From the NCBI GenBank assembly GCA_964016885.1, contig OZ024747.1, forward strand, positions 64,728,001 to 64,792,000: a stretch of 64,000 nt of DNA, in the 5' to 3' direction. Below, piece by piece: positions 6,041 to 64,000 of this stretch. The first letter of the stretch is position 1; each line of letters opens with the position of its first letter. The notes below the pieces were generated by a model. That model was given only the letters and a program-made list of their open reading frames with translations. It had not been told where the DNA came from and made no database searches. Position numbers and translations under genes: made by a program. The DNA is from Eledone cirrhosa. Taxonomy: Eukaryota.

Positions 6041-9000
6041 CTATAGGCGCATGGTCAGACTAGGCCCATTAACACGAGCCATTCTCGCCCTATTCACCCA
6101 CCTTTTAGCAAATGTACTGGGGGGCAGCACTTCCCTCTCCACCCTCACCTTCCTTTCCAGGTGAAACTTGAAGAAGTTGATGAGGGATTGGCCGAAGAGA
6201 AAAGTGTCTGTCTTCAGTCCTTTTAACCTGGTCCACCATATAACCTCTTTCGCAACTGCCACCAGACAGAGGAAAATTTCATACTCTTCCTGACCTAAGG
6301 AAGGCGGTGGATCGATCTTCACTATGGACTCGGCCGATAACCGGATTCGTTCCACACGCGACAGTAGCTGTTCGACATAACTCCACAAGTCAGTAATGCA
6401 CGGACATTGGACAAGTGCGAGGAGAACGGTTTCGTCGTTCTGTGTGCATCTTGGGCAGGTCCGTCTGACAGCACTTCCGTGCCTGTAGAGTTCATCCCGA
6501 ACCGGCAGTGCCCCCCGGTAGCACTGCCAAGCGAGGGATTTCTGGAAATTGTCCATTGTCCCCGGCTCAAAAGTCCTCCGGTACAGACTGGTCAGTTCGA
6601 CTTCTTCGAGGCCCAAAGCTTCTCCGAGTGCGTCATCGCACTTTCCCACCACTAAACCTCTATAGAACTCGAGAGTTGAAGTTCCACTGATCGCATTGCC
6701 CGCTTGGTATAGGGCAGTGAGTGCCTGGCAACATTCCAGATGCCAGTCACGCAGTCTCGGTCTCTTCTTGACCCAGGACTGCAGCTCAGTCAAAGAAATG
6801 AGCTGCGGAAAGGCCCGTCTGATAAACGGCGACCACACCTGTTCACCGTTGAGGCAGGATATCTGGAGATGTCGCAGCCTCAACGCATGTCTGCGCATCA
6901 TTAGCCACGGCATGCCCAGCCCTCCGCGTAGAGGGTGCTGGCAGCAGATGGACCGCCTCATCAACGGAACTTGTCCCTTCCACAATAATTTGAAGAGGAG
7001 CCGTTCCGCCTTGACGAGGCGCGGACGGGGGCAAGGCACGACGGTCAGGCGGTAGTAGATGACGGACGCGATGTACGCATTCGCCACCTCCGCGCGACCT
7101 TTCAGTGATAGCTTCCTCCCAGCCCATTTTGGGGTGAGACTGGCTACTCTGCTCGTTACCTCGTCCCAATTCTTTTCCACCTGGAGGTCTGGTCCGAACC
7201 AAACCCCGAGCAACTTTACCGGTCCGTCCGTCCAGCGCCCCACGACGCTGTTGGACGGCATGGGCTTGCCTCTCCAGGTTCCGAGCTGCAAGCCCACCGA
7301 CTTTTCCGGGTTAAGTTTGGCTCCTGTCAACCTTTCATATTCCTTCAATAAGGTGCCGACCACCTCGATTTCTGAGGTGTTCGACACCATCACGGTGATG
7401 TCGTCCGCATAAGCCGACACCGCGCTTCCACGTCTCGGTTCGAGCGGGATGCCCTGCAACAGCTCCAGCTTCCGCAGTAAAGGCTTGAGAGTCAATACGT
7501 ACAGAAGGGAAGAGAGAGGGCACCCTTGACGGACTGATCGGGAGAGCCGAAATGGTTCGGAGAGGTGGCCATTAACCTTGACCACCGAGCGTGTGCCGCT
7601 GTGCATTGCAGCGATCCAGCTTCTAAAGACAGGGCCGAAGCCAGCTGCTTTGAGGACAAACTCCAGATACCGATGGTCGACCCTATCGAATGCTTTCGAT
7701 TGATCTAAATTGATCAGTGCTCCACCGAAGCCAGGTTTACACCCTACCCTCTCTATGATGTATCGCATGAGGTGGAGATTGTCGTGTATGGACCTGGCTG
7801 GGATTGCGCAAGTTTGCGCCTACCCAACCAAATCCTCAACGACAAGCGCCAATCTCTTCGCTAACACCTTGGCCAAAATCTTAAACTCTGTGTTGAGCAG
7901 AGTTATGGGCCTGAAATTGTCTAATGTATCCCTCTTGTTCTCGTCTTTCCTTATCAGAGTCACCACTCCCCTGCTCACAGAACTGGGAATACTGCCATTC
8001 TGCTGCCAGTTGCAGTAGAGCGCTTCGAGGAGTTCGGAGAACAAGTCTGGCATATTTACGTAAAGCTCGTAGGGAAGGCCATCCAAACTGGGTGAGTTGC
8101 GCCTCATGCAGCCGACAAGGGCGTCCTGAATTGCGGCTGAAGTAATCGGCCTTTCGCAGCGCTCAGCGTCGACCGTCGAGATGCGCGGCAAGCCGTCAAG
8201 GTAGGGACTGAAATCCGCTACTCTCTCTGACTCGCCACTCTCCCCGAACAACCGAGCAAAGTGCTGGCGAAAGGCCGCACACATCAACTTGGAATCGCTT
8301 ATCTCGTGTCCGTCTCGGTCCGCCGACGACCGAATTGTGATTTTATTACCACGCTGCGCCTCCGCCACGCGGGCCCATCGAACATCTTTTGTTCCCTCGT
8401 TTCTCAGCGCACGTGCCTTAGTTCTGACAATGCAACCTTCGTGTTTGGCATTGAAGAAATGGTCTAATGCCATTCTCGCCGCTAGCACGTCAGTTGCAAT
8501 GCCACTACAAATAGCCTCGTCTAACTTATCTACCAGCTCCCCCTCCTTTCTATTTTTCTCTAACGCTAGTTCTTTGCTGAACTCTATCGAAGTTACTCTC
8601 ACCTCTCTTTTGAGAGCCCCCCCACCATATGTTGTTGATGCTCCCCCCTGTCAACTTTTGCTTAACTAAAATGTTGACTCGGTCCCTGTAAGCCTTACGT
8701 GCCGGAAATGACATGTTCAGCTTCCAGTAACCCGGTCCTAACCTACGCGTTTTGTCTAGGTAGACCGTACAGATCACAAATTTGTGATCTGAATAGGCAA
8801 CCGTTTTAAAAAGTGGGCAGCCCACACTATTTCTATCTATTTTCCTAATGAAAATCCTGTCTATATACGATCTAGATGACCCCATTTGGTTGGTCCATGT
8901 CCATACTGGCACATTGGGGAAATCTAGTCGATACCTGTCAGACAGTTGGAACTGGCTGAGTAGGTGATTGAGGCTTTTGCACCCCCCGCTCCTATCGGCT

Positions 9001-9464
9001 ACTCCCACACAATCCCAGCTTGCGTCTAAGATGCCATTCCAGTCCCCCGCTAACAGTAAAGGGCGAGACGTACCCAGAAAGGTCTCCAGGCGCCTAAAGA
9101 AGTCCGGTCGTACGGCCCCTGTAGGGGCATAGACGGCCAGCAGTCTAAAGGCACCGCCTTCGGTACTGCTCACATCCAAGACCACCAACTTACCGTCCGG
9201 GTCCCGGAAGATCGACCTTACCTCAAGATCCAGTCCTTTCCTAAACAGCACTGCCATCCCACCCCCCATTCCCGGCTTGCTAACAGATGCAAAGATCTGA
9301 TAGTCGTCGAAAATGGGGGCTAGTGCGCGCGTGTCGGAAATTCTGGTCTCGCTGACGGCAATCAGATACATTTCCAGCGACCTGAGGTCGTTGAGCAGGC
9401 GACCCTGCTTCCAGGGTGACCCCAGGCCGCGAACATTTAAACTTCCTACTCTTAATATGGCCAT
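6041..9464 (-). pseudogene. Tx1 ORF2 (APE endonuclease + reverse transcriptase + C-terminal zinc-finger-like region), disrupted
   Basis: EN motifs SLNVRGL, ET, GDWN, YIDRIF, SDH (8550-9464); RT motifs FRPITLLNTEFKIL, DQSKAFDRVDH, QGCPLS, YADD; CPRC near the C-terminus. One frame change near 8600-8650 and one in-frame TAG at 7820-7822 (ORFs 7820-8602 and 6041-7768 share a frame). Confidence 0.93.
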
Positions 9465-9493
9465 ATTGGTAAGCTAAGAGAGAGAGGGATGGT

Positions 9494-11092
9494 TTACTTA
9501 CCTCCCGGGGTCTTGTGAAGGTCGGGTGGTTCGACCTCCATGGTTGGTGGTGTTTCTTTTGGGAACCTCTTTAAAAGTCTTGATGTGGGTTTCACATATG
9601 GGGTTCTCACGTCTTGAGGAAAGCTCTCTCGAATTTCTTTGAAGGAATTGAGTAACATTCGGACCAGAAGCAAATCTTCTGGCACGCAAAATGTGCTCAT
9701 TTCAAAAATCTCCCCCTCTGTTTGAATGTCCTCGCTTCGTGCTAAGAGGGCCATCAGTTTATCGTTGGCCCTTCTGACAAGCACGAAGTTTTTAACATTT
9801 TGGTGGTGTGGTTTTATTTGTTTTCGTTTTGGTGACTGTGATGGTGATGGTTTTGGTGGTGTTGTTTCGGGTATGTCTGTGTTTGTTGTAGGTGTGGTGT
9901 CTGCAATTTCAGGTATGTGTGTTTATTTGTACTTGTGTTTGTTTAGGTTGTTTGCCTTTCGGGGATTGTGAAGGTGGTGTCGATGTTGCTGTTGGTGATG
10001 ATGTTATTGGGGAAGTGTTTGCGTTAGTGGTGTCTGTATTTTTTGTTGTGTATGTTTTTGTGTTTTGTTGGGGCTTTTTTTTTTGGTGAGTTTTCTCTGT
10101 TTTTTTTTTTTGCACTTTTGGGTTTTCCTTCATCTTCGCTGCTGGAAGACAAAGGGTCTGTGGCTGTGAGTGTCTCTGTGTCTGTGTGTGCGTTTATTGT
10201 TTTGTCTATGTGTATAATTGGGGGGGGGGGGGGGGGGCGGGGTAGGTGGAGTGGGAGAGCTTACCTCGTTTTCCCCTTGGATTGGTTTTGGTGTTGGTGG
10301 TGATACGTGTGTTTTTGATGTTGGTGTCCGTGTTTTTGTTGGTGTTGTTTTTGGTGGTGGTGATGCTGCAGCTTTCCGTGCTGACACTGGCGTTGGCAAC
10401 AAAGGAGGTTTGCGACCCCCTGCATTTTTGCGCTGAGGGCAGAAGGCTTGCAGATGCGTTGCTTCCCCGCAGACGAAGCAGCGTGGACTTCTTCCGTCAA
10501 TGATTAGTTGGATTGTTGTCCCGTCCTGCAGGCGGGCAAAATCCGGGAGTTTGTTCATGTCCTCCGGTTTCATTTGGAGAAGAATCTCCAAATCCATTCC
10601 GGGCCAGTCCTCTCTCTCTGTCCTTTTGATATCCAGGAGAGTAGTGTTTGTCCCCTCCTCGATTACGCATCCCAGCAGCCACCATATGTTCATTCCTGGT
10701 GGGATACTGGGAATACGTACCTTTACTGTCATTTTACCCATGCAGGACGGATGCATGATAATGCGTTCCGTTCTGCAGGGGGTCACCGAGTGCTTAATAG
10801 CGAGGGTCTCGGTTTTGAACAGTACCGAGATGGTACCAAACTGTTTGCCTCTTGCTTTGTATTCTATGTTACTTCCGATGTACTCCAAAGCAGCCTCGAC
10901 CTCTGCTTGGCTGGCAAGTTCCACTTTTCGTGTCTGCACCGAAATGCATCGAAAGAACACCGTCTTCCTTTGCATGGCCGCTATTGCCTCGTCCGGGATG
11001 GTCAGGTTTTCCCAGGACTTCTCCCGTTTAATTAGCCTCCACGCTTTGGCTAACTGTTCGTCTTTATCGCTAATATCAATATCAATATTCAA
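9494..11092 (-). pseudogene. Tx1 ORF1 (gag-like nucleic-acid-binding protein), frameshifted
   Basis: CFVCGEATHLQAFC (CX2CX4HX4C) knuckle, then a Pro/Thr/Lys-rich region; split into ORFs 10130-11092, 9909-10133 and 9494-9784, with long G and T homopolymer runs near the first break; ends about 30 bp before the ORF2 ATG. Confidence 0.8.
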
Positions 11093-11259
11093 TAAGCGCT
11101 TTGTTTTTGCTGCTGCTGCAGCAAATGTGGTGTTTCTGATGCTCTTATTGTTGGTGTAATAATAATAATAATAATAATATATATATAATCATCATCATCA
11201 TCATCATTATTATTATTATTATTATATATTTATCATTATTATTATTAGATATATTTATA

Positions 11260-55897: not shown

Positions 55898-56057
55898 AAC
55901 TATATATATACATAAACTATATATATACACACATATATATATATATATAACTATTGGCAACATGACCCTCCCAAAGTATAACAATATATATATACATATA
56001 TATATATACATATATATATATATACATATATATACATATATATACATATATATATAT

Positions 56058-56121
<64 letters not shown>

Positions 56122-58555: not shown

Positions 58556-58587
<32 letters not shown>

Positions 58588-58591
<4 letters not shown>

Positions 58592-61500
58592 ATAAATGCT
58601 CTGAAATAGCGATATATATGTGAATATAGACATAGAATATTCGAAAATATTCTGTATGTTTATAATAAACATTTTGAAGACCTAATCGCTATAGAATAGA
58701 ATACGTCACGTATTACAATTAGATTCTCGATAAAAGCAAGGGAAGTAATCTACGCGTTTCATTCTTGTTAGAATTCATCAGGACCACATATCCAGTGCTT
58801 TTATCGAGAATGACACAGCTAGAGACTTATAGAATACTTAGCTGTGTACAGGAACTGGTTTGAAAGAGCGGTTGCCGGTCCGGCAGAAATTAGAAATTGG
58901 AATAAATGCTCTGAAATAGCGATATATATGTGAATATAGACATAGAATATTCGAAAATATTCTGTATGTTTATAATAAACATTTTGAAGACCTAATCGCT
59001 ATAGAATAGAATACGTCACGTATTACAATTAGATTCTCGATAAAAGCAAGGGAAGTAATCTACGCGTTTCATTCTTGTTAGAATTCATCAGGACCACATA
59101 TCCAGTGCTTTTATCGAGAATGACACAGCTAGAGACTTATAGAATACTTAGCTGTGTACAGGAACTGGTTTGAAAGAGCGGTTGCCGGTCCGGCAGAAAT
59201 TAGAAATTGGAATAAATGCTCTGAAATAGCGATATATATGTGAATATAGACATAGAATATTCGAAAATATTCTGTATGTTTATAATAAACATTTTGAAGA
59301 CCTAATCGCTATAGAATAGAATACGTCACGTATTACAATTAGATTCTCGATAAAAGCAAGGGAAGTAATCTACGCGTTTCATTCTTGTTAGAATTCATCA
59401 GGACCACATATCCAGTGCTTTTATCGAGAATGACACAGCTAGAGACTTATAGAATACTTAGCTGTGTACAGGAACTGGTTTGAAAGAGCGGTTGCCGGTC
59501 CGGCAGAAATTAGAAATTGGAATAAATGCTCTGAAATAGCGATATATATGTGAATATAGACATAGAATATTCGAAAATATTCTGTATGTTTATAATAAAC
59601 ATTTTGAAGACCTAATCGCTATAGAATAGAATACGTCACGTATTACAATTAGATTCTCGATAAAAGCAAGGGAAGTAATCTACGCGTTTCATTCTTGTTA
59701 GAATTCATCAGGACCACATATCCAGTGCTTTTATCGAGAATGACACAGCTAGAGACTTATAGAATACTTAGCTGTGTACAGGAACTGGTTTGAAAGAGCG
59801 GTTGCCGGTCCGGCAGAAATTAGAAATTGGAATAAATGCTCTGAAATAGCGATATATATGTGAATATAGACATAGAATATTCGAAAATATTCTGTATGTT
59901 TATAATAAACATTTTGAAGACCTAATCGCTATAGAATAGAATACGTCACGTATTACAATTAGATTCTCGATAAAAGCAAGGGAAGTAATCTACGCGTTTC
60001 ATTCTTGTTAGAATTCATCAGGACCACATATCCAGTGCTTTTATCGAGAATGACACAGCTAGAGACTTATAGAATACTTAGCTGTGTACAGGAACTGGTT
60101 TGAAAGAGCGGTTGCCGGTCCGGCAGAAATTAGAAATTGGAATAAATGCTCTGAAATAGCGATATATATGTGAATATAGACATAGAATATTCGAAAATAT
60201 TCTGTATGTTTATAATAAACATTTTGAAGACCTAATCGCTATAGAATAGAATACGTCACGTATTACAATTAGATTCTCGATAAAAGCAAGGGAAGTAATC
60301 TACGCGTTTCATTCTTGTTAGAATTCATCAGGACCACATATCCAGTGCTTTTATCGAGAATGACACAGCTAGAGACTTATAGAATACTTAGCTGTGTACA
60401 GGAACTGGTTTGAAAGAGCGGTTGCCGGTCCGGCAGAAATTAGAAATTGGAATAAATGCTCTGAAATAGCGATATATATGTGAATATAGACATAGAATAT
60501 TCGAAAATATTCTGTATGTTTATAATAAACATTTTGAAGACCTAATCGCTATAGAATAGAATACGTCACGTATTACAATTAGATTCTCGATAAAAGCAAG
60601 GGAAGTAATCTACGCGTTTCATTCTTGTTAGAATTCATCAGGACCACATATCCAGTGCTTTTATCGAGAATGACACTGCTAGAGACTTATAGAATACTTA
60701 GCTGTGTACAGGAACTGGTTTGAAAGAGCGGTTGCCGGTCCGGCAGAAATTAGAAATTGGAATAAATGCTCTGAAATAGCGATATATATGTGAATATAGA
60801 CGTAGAATATTCGAAAATATTCTGTATGTTTATAATAAACATTTTGAAGACCTAATCGCTATAGAATAGAATACGTCACGTATTACAATTAGATTCTCGA
60901 TAAAAGCAAGGGAAGTAATCTACGCGTTTCATTCTTGTTAGAATTCATCAGGACCACATATCCAGTGCTTTTATCGAGAATGACACAGCTAGAGACTTAT
61001 AGAATACTTAGCTGTGTACAGGAACTGGTTTGAAAGAGCGGTTGCCGGTCCGGCAGAAATTAGAAATTGGAATAAATGCTCTGAAATAGCGATATATATG
61101 TGAATATAGACATAGAATATTCGAAAATATTCTGTATGTTTATAATAAACATTTTGAAGACCTAATCGCTATAGAATAGAATACGTCACGTATTACAATT
61201 AGATTCTCGATAAAAGCAAGGGAAGTAATCTACGCGTTTCATTCTTGTTAGAATTCATCAGGACCACATATCCAGTGCTTTTATCGAGAATGACACAGCT
61301 AGAGACTTATAGAATACTTAGCTGTGTACAGGAACTGGTTTGAAAGAGCGGTTGCCGGTCCGGCAGAAATTAGAAATTGGAATAAATGCTCTGAAATAGC
61401 GATATATATGTGAATATAGACATAGAATATTCGAAAATATTCTGTATGTTTATAATAAACATTTTGAAGACCTAATCGCTATAGAATAGAATACGTCACG

Positions 61501-63636
61501 TATTACAATTAGATTCTCGATAAAAGCAAGGGAAGTAATCTACGCGTTTCATTCTTGTTAGAATTCATCAGGACCACATATCCAGTGCTTTTATCGAGAA
61601 TGACACAGCTAGAGACTTATAGAATACTTAGCTGTGTACAGGAACTGGTTTGAAAGAGCGGTTGCCGGTCCGGCAGAAATTAGAAATTGGAATAAATGCT
61701 CTGAAATAGCGATATATATGTGAATATAGACATAGAATATTCGAAAATATTCTGTATGTTTATAATAAACATTTTGAAGACCTAATCGCTATAGAATAGA
61801 ATACGTCACGTATTACAATTAGATTCTCGATAAAAGCAAGGGAAGTAATCTACGCGTTTCATTCTTGTTAGAATTCATCAGGACCACATATCCAGTGCTT
61901 TTATCGAGAATGACACAGCTAGAGACTTATAGAATACTTAGCTGTGTACAGGAACTGGTTTGAAAGAGCGGTTGCCGGTCCGGCAGAAATTAGAAATTGG
62001 AATAAATGCTCTGAAATAGCGATATATATGTGAATATAGACATAGAATATTCGAAAATATTCTGTATGTTTATAATAAACATTTTGAAGACCTAATCGCT
62101 ATAGAATAGAATACGTCACGTATTACAATTAGATTCTCGATAAAAGCAAGGGAAGTAATCTACGCGTTTCATTCTTGTTAGAATTCATCAGGACCACATA
62201 TCCAGTGCTTTTATCGAGAATGACACAGCTAGAGACTTATAGAATACTTAGCTGTGTACAGGAACTGGTTTGAAAGAGCGGTTGCCGGTCCGGCAGAAAT
62301 TAGAAATTGGAATAAATGCTCTGAAATAGCGATATATATGTGAATATAGACATAGAATATTCGAAAATATTCTGTATGTTTATAATAAACATTTTGAAGA
62401 CCTAATCGCTATAGAATAGAATACGTCACGTATTACAATTAGATTCTCGATAAAAGCAAGGGAAGTAATCTACGCGTTTCATTCTTGTTAGAATTCATCA
62501 GGACCACATATCCAGTGCTTTTATCGAGAATGACACAGCTAGAGACTTATAGAATACTTAGCTGTGTACAGGAACTGGTTTGAAAGAGCGGTTGCCGGTC
62601 CGGCAGAAATTAGAAATTGGAATAAATGCTCTGAAATAGCGATATATATGTGAATATAGACATAGAATATTCGAAAATATTCTGTATGTTTATAATAAAC
62701 ATTTTGAAGACCTAATCGCTATAGAATAGAATACGTCACGTATTACAATTAGATTCTCGATAAAAGCAAGGGAAGTAATCTACGCGTTTCATTCTTGTTA
62801 GAATTCATCAGGACCACATATCCAGTGCTTTTATCGAGAATGACACAGCTAGAGACTTATAGAATACTTAGCTGTGTACAGGAACTGGTTTGAAAGAGCG
62901 GTTGCCGGTCCGGCAGAAATTAGAAATTGGAATAAATGCTCTGAAATAGCGATATATATGTGAATATAGACATAGAATATTCGAAAATATTCTGTATGTT
63001 TATAATAAACATTTTGAAGACCTAATCGCTATAGAATAGAATACGTCACGTATTACAATTAGATTCTCGATAAAAGCAAGGGAAGTAATCTACGCGTTTC
63101 ATTCTTGTTAGAATTCATCAGGACCACATATCCAGTGCTTTTATCGAGAATGACACAGCTAGAGACTTATAGAATACTTAGCTGTGTACAGGAACTGGTT
63201 TGAAAGAGCGGTTGCCGGTCCGGCAGAAATTAGAAATTGGAATAAATGCTCTGAAATAGCGATATATATGTGAATATAGACATAGAATATTCGAAAATAT
63301 TCTGTATGTTTATAATAAACATTTTGAAGACCTAATCGCTATAGAATAGAATACGTCACGTATTACAATTAGATTCTCGATAAAAGCAAGGGAAGTAATC
63401 TACGCGTTTCATTCTTGTTAGAATTCATCAGGACCACATATCCAGTGCTTTTATCGAGAATGACACAGCTAGAGACTTATAGAATACTTAGCTGTGTACA
63501 GGAACTGGTTTGAAAGAGCGGTTGCCGGTCCGGCAGAAATTAGAAATTGGAATAAATGCTCTGAAATAGCGATATATATGTGAATATAGACATAGAATAT
63601 TCGAAAATATTCTGTATGTTTATAATAAACATTTTG
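58588..63636 (-). repeat. 310-bp tandem array (16 full units plus a partial unit), one hammerhead ribozyme per unit: candidate retrozyme satellite
   Basis: AATAAATGCT recurs at 58591, 58901, ... 63551; only two substitutions noticed (60677, 60802); the left end abuts (TA)n. Confidence 0.95.
58745..58787 (-). ncRNA. Minimal type I hammerhead ribozyme of the array (first of 16 copies at +310-bp steps, last at 63395-63437)
   Basis: GTGGTC-CTGATGA-ATTCT-AACA-AGAAT-GAAA-CGC-GTA-GATTAC: 6-bp stem I with two G-U pairs, 5-bp stem II, palindromic ACGCGT stem III, GUA cleavage triplet. Confidence 0.88.
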
Positions 63637-64000
63637 GATGAATTCTAACAAGAATGAAACGCGTAGATTACTTCCCTTGCTTTTATCGAGAATCTAATTG
63701 TAATACGTGACGTATTCTATTCTATAGCGATTAGGTCTTCAAAATGTTTATTATAAACATACAGAATATTTTCGAATATTCTATGTCTATATTCACATAT
63801 ATATCGCTATTTCAGAGCATTTATTCCAATTTCTAATTTCTGCCGGACCGGCAACCGCTCTTTCAAACCAGTTCCTGTACACAGCTAAGTATTCTATAAG
63901 TCTCTAGCTGTGTCATTCTCGATAAAAGCACTGGATATGTGGTCCTGATGAATTCTAACAAGAATGAAACGCGTAGATTACTTCCCTTGCTTTTATCGAG
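63637..64000 (+). repeat. Inverted continuation of the 310-bp array, running off the window; intact HHR at 63939-63981
   Basis: Exact reverse complement of the monomer, starting inside the HHR core at GATGA. Confidence 0.93.

Follow-up and report, generated by a model that had tools for sequence, protein, structure and literature searches.

How does a tandem array of a short repeat come to lie inside a microsatellite as two oppositely oriented arms that meet base to base? The question is raised by a 64,000-nt stretch of the genome of Eledone cirrhosa (positions 64,728,001 to 64,792,000 of contig OZ024747.1, assembly GCA_964016885.1, ~3.0 Gb; the whole stretch is hereafter called the window), which carries at its right-hand side an array of non-coding 310-nt units, each with a predicted hammerhead ribozyme motif. 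We consider it likely that this array is a single insertion of a young non-coding hammerhead repeat, whose synthesis was primed by the two 3' ends of a broken (TA)n tract and templated by one circular or uncleaved multimeric RNA, the enzyme probably being a reverse transcriptase (RT)-endonuclease of the Penelope-like type.

For the description of the array, position 1 of the unit was placed at the base following the predicted hammerhead cut (..ACGCGTA/GATTAC..), with unit 1-310 corresponding to window 63666-63975 in the ribozyme sense. The adjoining 20 kb were also read, and coordinates above 64,000 are extended ones (extended 65035 equals L011:1035). The whole insertion spans 6.45 kb inside a TA microsatellite, one half of which is presumably the (TA)15 tract at the left flank (Table 1). 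The left arm (A arm) has its outer 3' end at unit 165, where ..CCAAT meets (TA)n ~165 nt beyond the predicted cleavage site, and its inner 5' end at unit 75; the first-pass annotation, made from the letters of the window, had placed this terminus in (TA)n ~160 nt beyond the site. Over its 5,051 nt the arm departs from the unit at exactly two positions (60677 and 60802), the same number of substitutions as had been counted there. From 63637 onwards the array is continued as its own exact reverse complement; the switch (CATTTTG/GATGAATTC) is spacerless, as had been described, and no base is shared across it. The right arm (B arm) begins at unit 282, inside the CUGAUGA box, and has 1,035 nt past the window, where it ends as ..TCTATATTCA against (TA)8(GA)11ATTTTGAG (L011 ~1036-1075), followed by unique sequence. 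The terminating (TA)n that had been predicted beyond position 64,000 is therefore present, and the outer end of this arm is the unit's own AUAUAU tract (unit 130 class) abutting (TA)8(GA)11. Because the left arm runs from unit 165 to unit 75 and the right arm starts from unit 282, it is the ribozyme-sense 5' ends that meet, with the 3' ends pointing outwards, which was also the earlier reading. Between 63066-63429 and 63637-64000 the inverted arms are 100% complementary over 364 nt, a match that is not attributable to chance. The predicted cleavage site coincides with none of the three boundaries of the insertion (the centre junction and the two outer ends), and the outer ends of the two arms differ by 35 nt, the left one bearing a 35-nt "tail" (unit 131-165).

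Table 1. Coordinates of the features of the inverted array and its flank (window positions, unless extended).
Feature	Coordinates	Strand	Basis and remarks
(TA)15 microsatellite	58557-58587	.	Tandem Repeats Finder period 2, 15.5 copies, 100%; flanks left outer end
Left arm (A arm)	58586-63636	-	Tandem Repeats Finder period 310, 16.3 copies, 99% matches; one array
Centre junction	63636/63637	.	Unit 75 meets unit 282; blunt, overlap 0, no microhomology, no filler
Right arm (B arm)	63637-64000, on to extended 65035	+	1,399 nt, 4.5 units, 0 mismatches
First predicted hammerhead cleavage site of right arm	63665/63666 (unit 310/1)	+	29 nt inside arm
Minimal type I hammerhead motif, one complete copy	63930-63995	+	Read by eye; cmscan alignment; predicted cut after GUA, 63975/63976

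The architecture of the window insertion is repeated across the genome. A 620-nt query spanning the junction was matched over its full length on at least eight other contigs, at 90-98% identity and with slight differences in length, and all of the mapped loci from this query have the minus/plus order, each with its own centre junction. The outer ends were divided into A ends (unit 165-172) and B ends (unit 125-139). The word composed of the unit-165 end and (TA)n has 1,021 exact occurrences (502 on the plus and 519 on the minus strand; reversed control 0), and that composed of the unit-130 end and (TA)n has 1,208 (control 0), some of them internal to arrays with T at unit 131. On contig 1, an exact B word was found within 30 kb of 42 of the 94 A ends, in 40 of these 42 cases in outward-facing geometry. 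The mapped material comprised (i) the first 40 A-end places on contig 1 (L013-L052), (ii) 17 places anchored on B-end words with no exact A word nearby, and (iii) nine loci found by similarity to the window junction, i.e., 57 anchored loci on one contig plus nine others; since mapping relied on exact 10-11-mers of the window unit, diverged copies are under-represented. The first sample yielded 37 minus/plus pairs, one lone 5'-truncated arm joined straight to (TA)n (L036), and two loci that reach N (L022) or leave the fetched stretch (L047). The second yielded 14 pairs and three single B arms (L085, L089 and L095); 13 of these pairs are of the A+B type, with the partner end at unit 165, 167, 168, 170 or 172, the exception (L088) having its partner end at unit 127, against non-(TA) sequence.

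Taken together, the two anchored samples contain 51 pairs versus 4 single arms. The ribozyme-sense 5' ends meet in 60/60 two-armed insertions and the tail-to-tail arrangement was found in none, while the A+B combination is present in 53 of the 54 pairs with both outer ends visible. No outer end of these 54 pairs lies at the cleavage site (unit 1/310), the terminus that the first-pass annotation had named as the one to be expected if its reading were wrong. The 40 pairs with both outer ends in the fetched stretches are all of the A+B type, with the B end at unit 130 (20 pairs), 139 (13) or 125-128 (7), the last being unit variants of the 130 class; on close reading, we interpret the 130 class as the 139 class with C131 replaced by T, a remnant that would be expected if the (TA)n primer lay over the unit's ACAUAUAUAU. 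(TA)n was seen on both flanks in nearly all of 46 pairs, and the 35 nt that separate the B and A sites (26-42, depending on the class) are found at a single outer end. The rule also holds for arms of less than one unit (e.g., 153 and 80 nt at L014), and the centre junctions are different at every sampled locus. The "internal positions" of priming proposed in the first-pass annotation are thereby refined to two narrow AU-rich windows ~35 nt apart, one per arm.

Several loci showed additional peculiarities. Arrays at contig 1 105760989-105762499, 165008670-165010552 and 169700720-169703825, detected as 310-nt periodic matches of the B-end word, have T for C at unit 131 in every unit, the same change as that of the B-type outer end. 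At L013 (5885-6062; contig 1 1241342-1241519) the centre junction, unit 65 against unit 29, occurs twice, with the ~172-nt segment spanning it tandemly duplicated, which may have arisen by duplication at a later time or by template switching during synthesis. At L082 (2048-2319; contig 1 45281598-45281869) ~272 nt of unrelated sequence separate the arms of a regular A+B pair, and these could be captured filler or a later insertion.

Comparison of the arms fits two separate complementary DNAs (cDNAs) of the same RNA species, with fixed starts and unrelated stops, joined end to end. An arm differs from its partner by 0.033% (no difference at all in 36 of 40 pairs), versus a mean of 1.03% between arms of different loci; of 74 non-majority positions, 68 are common to both arms of a locus, and within arms only 60 of 133,468 bases (0.045%) depart from the arm majority. 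The inner ends are distributed uniformly round the unit (chi-square p 0.66), as is the A/B inner-end phase difference (Kolmogorov-Smirnov p 0.996, n=48). The lengths of A and B arms, which range from 75 nt to 8,459 nt (up to 27 units), are uncorrelated (rho 0.21), the A arm being the longer one in 25 and the B arm in 15 of 40 pairs. Most arms cross unit 310/1 several times, which indicates a template that was either circular or an uncleaved multimer, the DNA being compatible with both. Microhomology of at least 3 nt was found at 11 of 40 junctions, versus 6.8% by chance (p 5e-5), and filler of 1-16 nt at 13 of 40. The constant polarity, the independent inner ends and the private variants shared by partner arms support the earlier proposal of a single recent, RNA-templated event with two-ended priming, rather than slow unequal crossing-over. 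Two further candidate patterns were dropped: an inner-end hot spot at unit 13-22, since the spread fits the uniform distribution, and a left/right phase skew (Kolmogorov-Smirnov p 0.008), which resulted from the way in which the loci had been anchored and is gone under A/B labelling. Of the hallmarks of twin priming, 5' ends that meet and arms joined by microhomology were found across the sample, the window junction itself being blunt; a target-site duplication and a poly(A)-primed first arm were not found, there being no poly(A), and any target-site duplication would be hidden in (TA)n.

The 310-nt unit has a GC content of 34.5%, and its longest stop-free run, determined on a tetramer, is 59 codons. 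As it has no open frame, and hence neither an RT nor a GIY-YIG domain, the unit itself is not a Penelope-like element (PLE). It has the characters of animal non-long-terminal-repeat (non-LTR) retrozymes, i.e., head-to-tail units of ~150-400 nt with a type I hammerhead each, low GC content, no coding capacity and no LTRs (a primer-binding site and a polypurine tract were not searched for). The motif, of which the left arm has one copy per 310 nt on the minus strand (e.g., 63381-63446), is composed of helix I (GUGGUC/GAUUAC), the core box CUGAUGA, helix II with its loop (AUUC-UAACAA-GAAU), GAAA, and a palindrome (ACGCGU) replacing helix III; in its order of GUGGUC-CUGAUGA-AUUC UAACAA GAAU-GAAA-CGCGU-A/GAUUAC it includes the conserved core CUGANGA...GAAA and a cleavable UH site. 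The minimum-free-energy fold of the circular unit (-67.9 kcal/mol; z = -3.97 versus shuffles) pairs unit 1-6 with 274-279 (helix I, extended by a 16-bp stem) and 287-291 with 296-300 (helix II). Helix II is UUC/GAA here, and related families and the 3' region of an RT + GIY-YIG element have CGC/GCG, UGC/GCA or UAC/GUA, as compared by eye with no formal covariation test. Helices I and II are thus backed by pairing and compensatory change, and self-cleavage is predicted. Hammerheads of the newt type, which have a weak helix III, act as dimers. Helix-III-less hammerheads, thought to work as dimers, were reported in the pseudo-LTRs of PLEs, in the portions of that source covered (PMC7761336). In raw reads of two other individuals, ~20-30% of the reads of the family have T at 63649 or G at 63650 (helix II loop), which is variation between family copies.

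Four other explanations of the inverted array were weighed. In fold-back (snap-back) synthesis, one cDNA primed at site A would be copied back by the polymerase, which would exit at the TA-rich site B to the (TA)n target. This would account for the near identity of the arms of a locus and for the tail at one end only, and palindromes do occur: a pair of PLE copies in this genome (L076, see below) forms a perfect palindrome of 1,629 nt with an 8-nt spacer, and 15 of 50 centres are at most 36 nt from the palindromic register. A copy, however, cannot outgrow its template, and in 15 of 40 pairs it is the B arm that has the greater length; near-palindromic centres are no more frequent than chance would give (23.5% expected, p 0.18), the A/B phase difference is uniform, and the window centre is 103 nt out of register. 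Fold-back, an unlikely explanation of the array, was rejected as a general mechanism on the basis of these length, register and phase results. A LINE (long interspersed nuclear element)-type RT, acting by L1-style twin priming, would leave the layout and the two-ended priming unchanged. Twin priming is reportedly established for L1, in work by Ostertag and Kazazian from 2001, an APE + RT LINE is present in the window (6041-11188), and no partner PLE with shared sequence was found among 27 loci. Nonetheless, a poly(A) or A-rich 3' end is absent, the target is (TA)n at both flanks of nearly all sampled loci, and a pair of PLE copies in this genome (L076) has the same syntax as the array. The one-sided 35-nt tail and the near-obligatory inversion (51 pairs versus 4 single arms) are described, in the covered parts of PMC8557442, for PLEs and not for LINEs, and the minimal helix-III-less hammerhead is of the kind present in PLE pseudo-LTRs, as given in the covered parts of PMC7761336. 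A LINE-type enzyme accordingly appears quite unlikely.

An origin at the DNA level, in which later inversion or duplication of a one-armed array (through replication template switching, breakage-fusion or recombination) was followed by growth through unequal crossing-over and by homogenisation through gene conversion, seems very improbable. Inverted repeats do convert, and there is a local duplication across the centre junction of L013, but such processes leave unaccounted for (i) the outward 3' ends of 60/60 pairs, (ii) the 165-172 + 125-139 end rule (53/54), and (iii) the (TA)n at both ends and the persistence of the rule in sub-unit arms (L014), and the within-array variation of 0.045% leaves little time for anything slow. 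It is extremely improbable that the inversion at 63637 is an assembly artefact produced by fold-back chimeric long reads, a suspicion to which the junction 63636/63637 is exposed by the fact that no independent read could be assigned to it, by the fact that no listed contig of the likely source sample covers the 400-nt stretch 63437-63836, and by the trouble which such structures cause in assemblies, as stated in the parts of PMC8557442 covered. A chimera would give a perfect palindrome, whereas the arms are here 103 nt out of register; the right arm terminates in a microsatellite and then unique sequence, within a 94-Mb contig; the rule-bound layout, with differing centres, was found in 60/60 sampled pairs; and a head-to-head joint of the family, from another locus, was seen in two other individuals (98 and 110 raw short reads).

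The enzyme most readily suggested by these footprints is that of PLEs. According to the covered portions of Craig, Yushenova, Rodriguez and Arkhipova (2021; PMC8557442), PLE insertions occur as 5'-truncated partial tandems, often with an inverted 5'-truncated copy abutting the 5' end, bear a 30-40-bp tail at one end only, and prefer (TA)n microsatellites, which mask any target-site duplication; hammerhead motifs are present in most PLE clades, and the integration mechanism is called undefined. The 310-nt family has the same signature, i.e., the microsatellite target, the inverted 5'-truncated copy and the one-ended 30-40-bp tail, along with partial tandems and hammerheads. It differs from PLEs in that (i) the unit is non-coding (no stop-free run above 59 codons), (ii) with a unit of 310 nt, each arm is a many-fold head-to-tail array, not a truncated coding copy, and (iii) no sequence similarity to an autonomous element was found (27 loci).

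A search of the genome for the GIY-YIG family gave 10,596 first-look candidates, of which 150/150 scored above the cut-off, and several long open frames encode an RT followed by a C-terminal GIY-YIG domain. One locus (L076 3259-6580; contig 1 97887259-97890580) contains head-to-head 5'-truncated RT + GIY-YIG copies in (TA)n, with 1,629-nt arms that are 100% complementary and separated by an 8-nt spacer. One arm terminates in ..TTATTAATATA where it meets (TA)n; its partner extends for another ~55 nt up to its own (TA)n. Judged from these ends, the locus has the same A/B syntax as the insertions of the 310-nt family; its perfect register differs from that of the retrozyme pairs. Its 3' region includes a minimal hammerhead-like motif with CUGAAGA and the palindrome AGUACU.

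Direct comparisons of the unit with such elements gave a second family instead of a partner. In a blastn search of the unit against 20 GIY-YIG loci, the only match was to a second non-coding hammerhead family, which has 78-82% identity to the unit over 59-154 (the 3' module) and only this module in common with it. This family has 1,829 genomic termini of the form TTTCAGAGCA-8 nt-AAT-(AT)n, and at 20 sampled places it is mostly a self-inverted insertion of 260-420 nt; at L054 (2426-2905; contig 1 267124874-267125353) it lies head-to-head in (TA)n, with a ~43-nt tail at one end. A 3' module common to both families is predicted if one RT recognises both. A tblastn search with four element proteins against 20 loci of the second family returned only distant, unconnected pieces of open reading frames, and a GIY-YIG match 4 kb upstream of one terminus of this family, considered as a linked partner, turned out to be one of two separate insertions. 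A regular-expression hammerhead scan of the element loci found nothing convincing, and cmscan of six element loci at a permissive threshold gave only (TA)n-driven microRNA noise. No partner with shared sequence was found among the 27 element loci, and the enzyme is assigned solely from the insertion signature.

The proposed mechanism may be set out in six steps. The unit would be transcribed, and a dimer-type hammerhead would cut the transcript to 310-nt monomers, which would be ligated to circles. A Penelope-type endonuclease would open the (TA)n tract, and one DNA 3' end would initiate a cDNA at site A (unit 165-172), an AU-rich loop; this site falls within a predicted unpaired loop of 22 nt (unit 154-175). 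The other DNA 3' end would anneal to the AUAUAUAU tract (unit 130-139; site B) of the same RNA, the use of both sites on one RNA being deduced from the A+B rule and the shared variants. Each polymerase would then roll round the template for an unrelated distance, the outcome of which is visible in the DNA. Finally, 0-5 nt of microhomology or a few bases of filler would link the 3' ends of the cDNAs, a joining likewise visible as an outcome, and the complementary strands would be filled in. The product would be a minus arm followed by a plus arm, of which just one would have, at its outer end, the 35 nt that separate B from A. The restriction to A+B pairs, with no A+A and hardly any B+B, suggests that a single complex keeps both ends on the same RNA. 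As a tentative extension, the A+B rule may record the normal Penelope-type integration, in which one RNA-protein complex holds both 3' ends on one RNA, at two AU-rich sites ~35 nt from each other; on a 310-nt circle, kilobase arrays would be born whole, and the tail and inverted copy of PLEs would be by-products of coupled twin priming.

Several observations weigh against this mechanism, or against parts of it. At site A, a (TA)n primer could pair with no more than 2 nt, and microhomology alone accounts neither for the precision of this site nor for the formation of A+B rather than B+B pairs. The identity of the arms could in principle be maintained by gene conversion between inverted repeats, and their lengths could have been altered after insertion by unequal exchange. 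The match to Rfam Hammerhead_HH9 is only 21.5 bits (E 0.094; gathering score 52), and such a sub-threshold score, expected as it is for predicted helix-III-less variants, is still a miss. The perfect L076 palindrome is no less compatible with a fold-back copy, or with an RNA 5' end common to both arms, than with twin priming. An autonomous PLE sharing sequence with the unit was not found among 27 element loci of >10,000 candidates, a number of loci far too small to exclude a partner. At the level of reads, contigs of two runs and raw reduced-representation reads of two individuals gave heavy family-wide depth over 63437-63836, none of it assignable to 63636/63637. Finally, no empty-site allele was seen in the assembly with the 33-nt left flank as a probe; this flank is unique there, and hence there is no alternative haplotig.

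Part of the picture is already published, namely the retrozyme tandems, their proposed descent from PLEs, and the signature of tandems, inversion, tail and (TA)n in PLEs, as far as the covered portions of these sources extend. Animal non-LTR retrozymes are tandem hammerhead repeats (Cervera and de la Pena, 2020; PMC7229834), and they were proposed to be non-autonomous descendants of PLEs (Li, Clavereau and Pollet, 2026; bioRxiv 10.64898/2026.07.22.740005). The 310-nt family resembles them, as they are portrayed in the sections covered, in its tandem, AT-rich, non-coding units of a few hundred nt with a type I hammerhead each, and in a spread that is proposed to proceed through circular RNA and reverse transcription, as non-autonomous Penelope-like derivatives. 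The discussion of the preprint, in its covered part, attributes the growth of retrozyme arrays to local amplification and unequal crossover; unlike under such stepwise growth, the arrays here look born complete in one event. In a term search of the available text of PMC7229834 and bioRxiv 10.64898/2026.07.22.740005, retrozyme arrays were nowhere said to have head-to-head arms, a one-sided tail or a microsatellite target, and no name for the 310-nt family was found in the covered portion of the literature. "Twin priming" and "Penelope" appeared jointly only as an incidental co-mention in a search whose range did not extend to older subscription-journal papers.

Tandem units of a few hundred nt with self-cleaving transcripts also form the hammerhead satellite DNAs of newts, schistosomes and cave crickets. 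Unlike those satellite arrays, each array described here is a bounded insertion with defined termini in a microsatellite. In L1 twin priming, reportedly, as in the mechanism proposed here, both ends of the break prime on one RNA, the 5' ends meet at the inversion, and the junction has microhomology. The present arrays differ from the L1 case in having no poly(A), in that both priming sites are internal, fixed and ~35 nt apart, in a template that behaves as endless (arms of up to 27 units), and in inversion being the rule, not the exception.

The value of these data lies in quantitative rules on a poorly understood integration reaction, that of PLEs being an acknowledged open problem. The ~1,000 insertions of a very young family, each of which records the start site on either strand and two independent stops, constitute a natural data set. 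They bear as well on the origin of satellite-like DNA, as arrays of up to 27 units seem to have been written in one event, not grown by unequal exchange, and they support the recent proposal that animal retrozymes ride on PLEs by insertion footprints and not by co-occurrence.

Two other features of the region may be mentioned. A LINE-type retrotransposon, located on the minus strand of the window (6041-11188) and containing Exo_endo_phos (APE), RVT_1 and zf-RVT domains, is unrelated to the array. Very long (TA)n tracts are also very frequent across the genome (e.g., window 56000-56119 and L073-L078); they provide plentiful target sites for these elements and generate floods of false microRNA matches in permissive Rfam scans.

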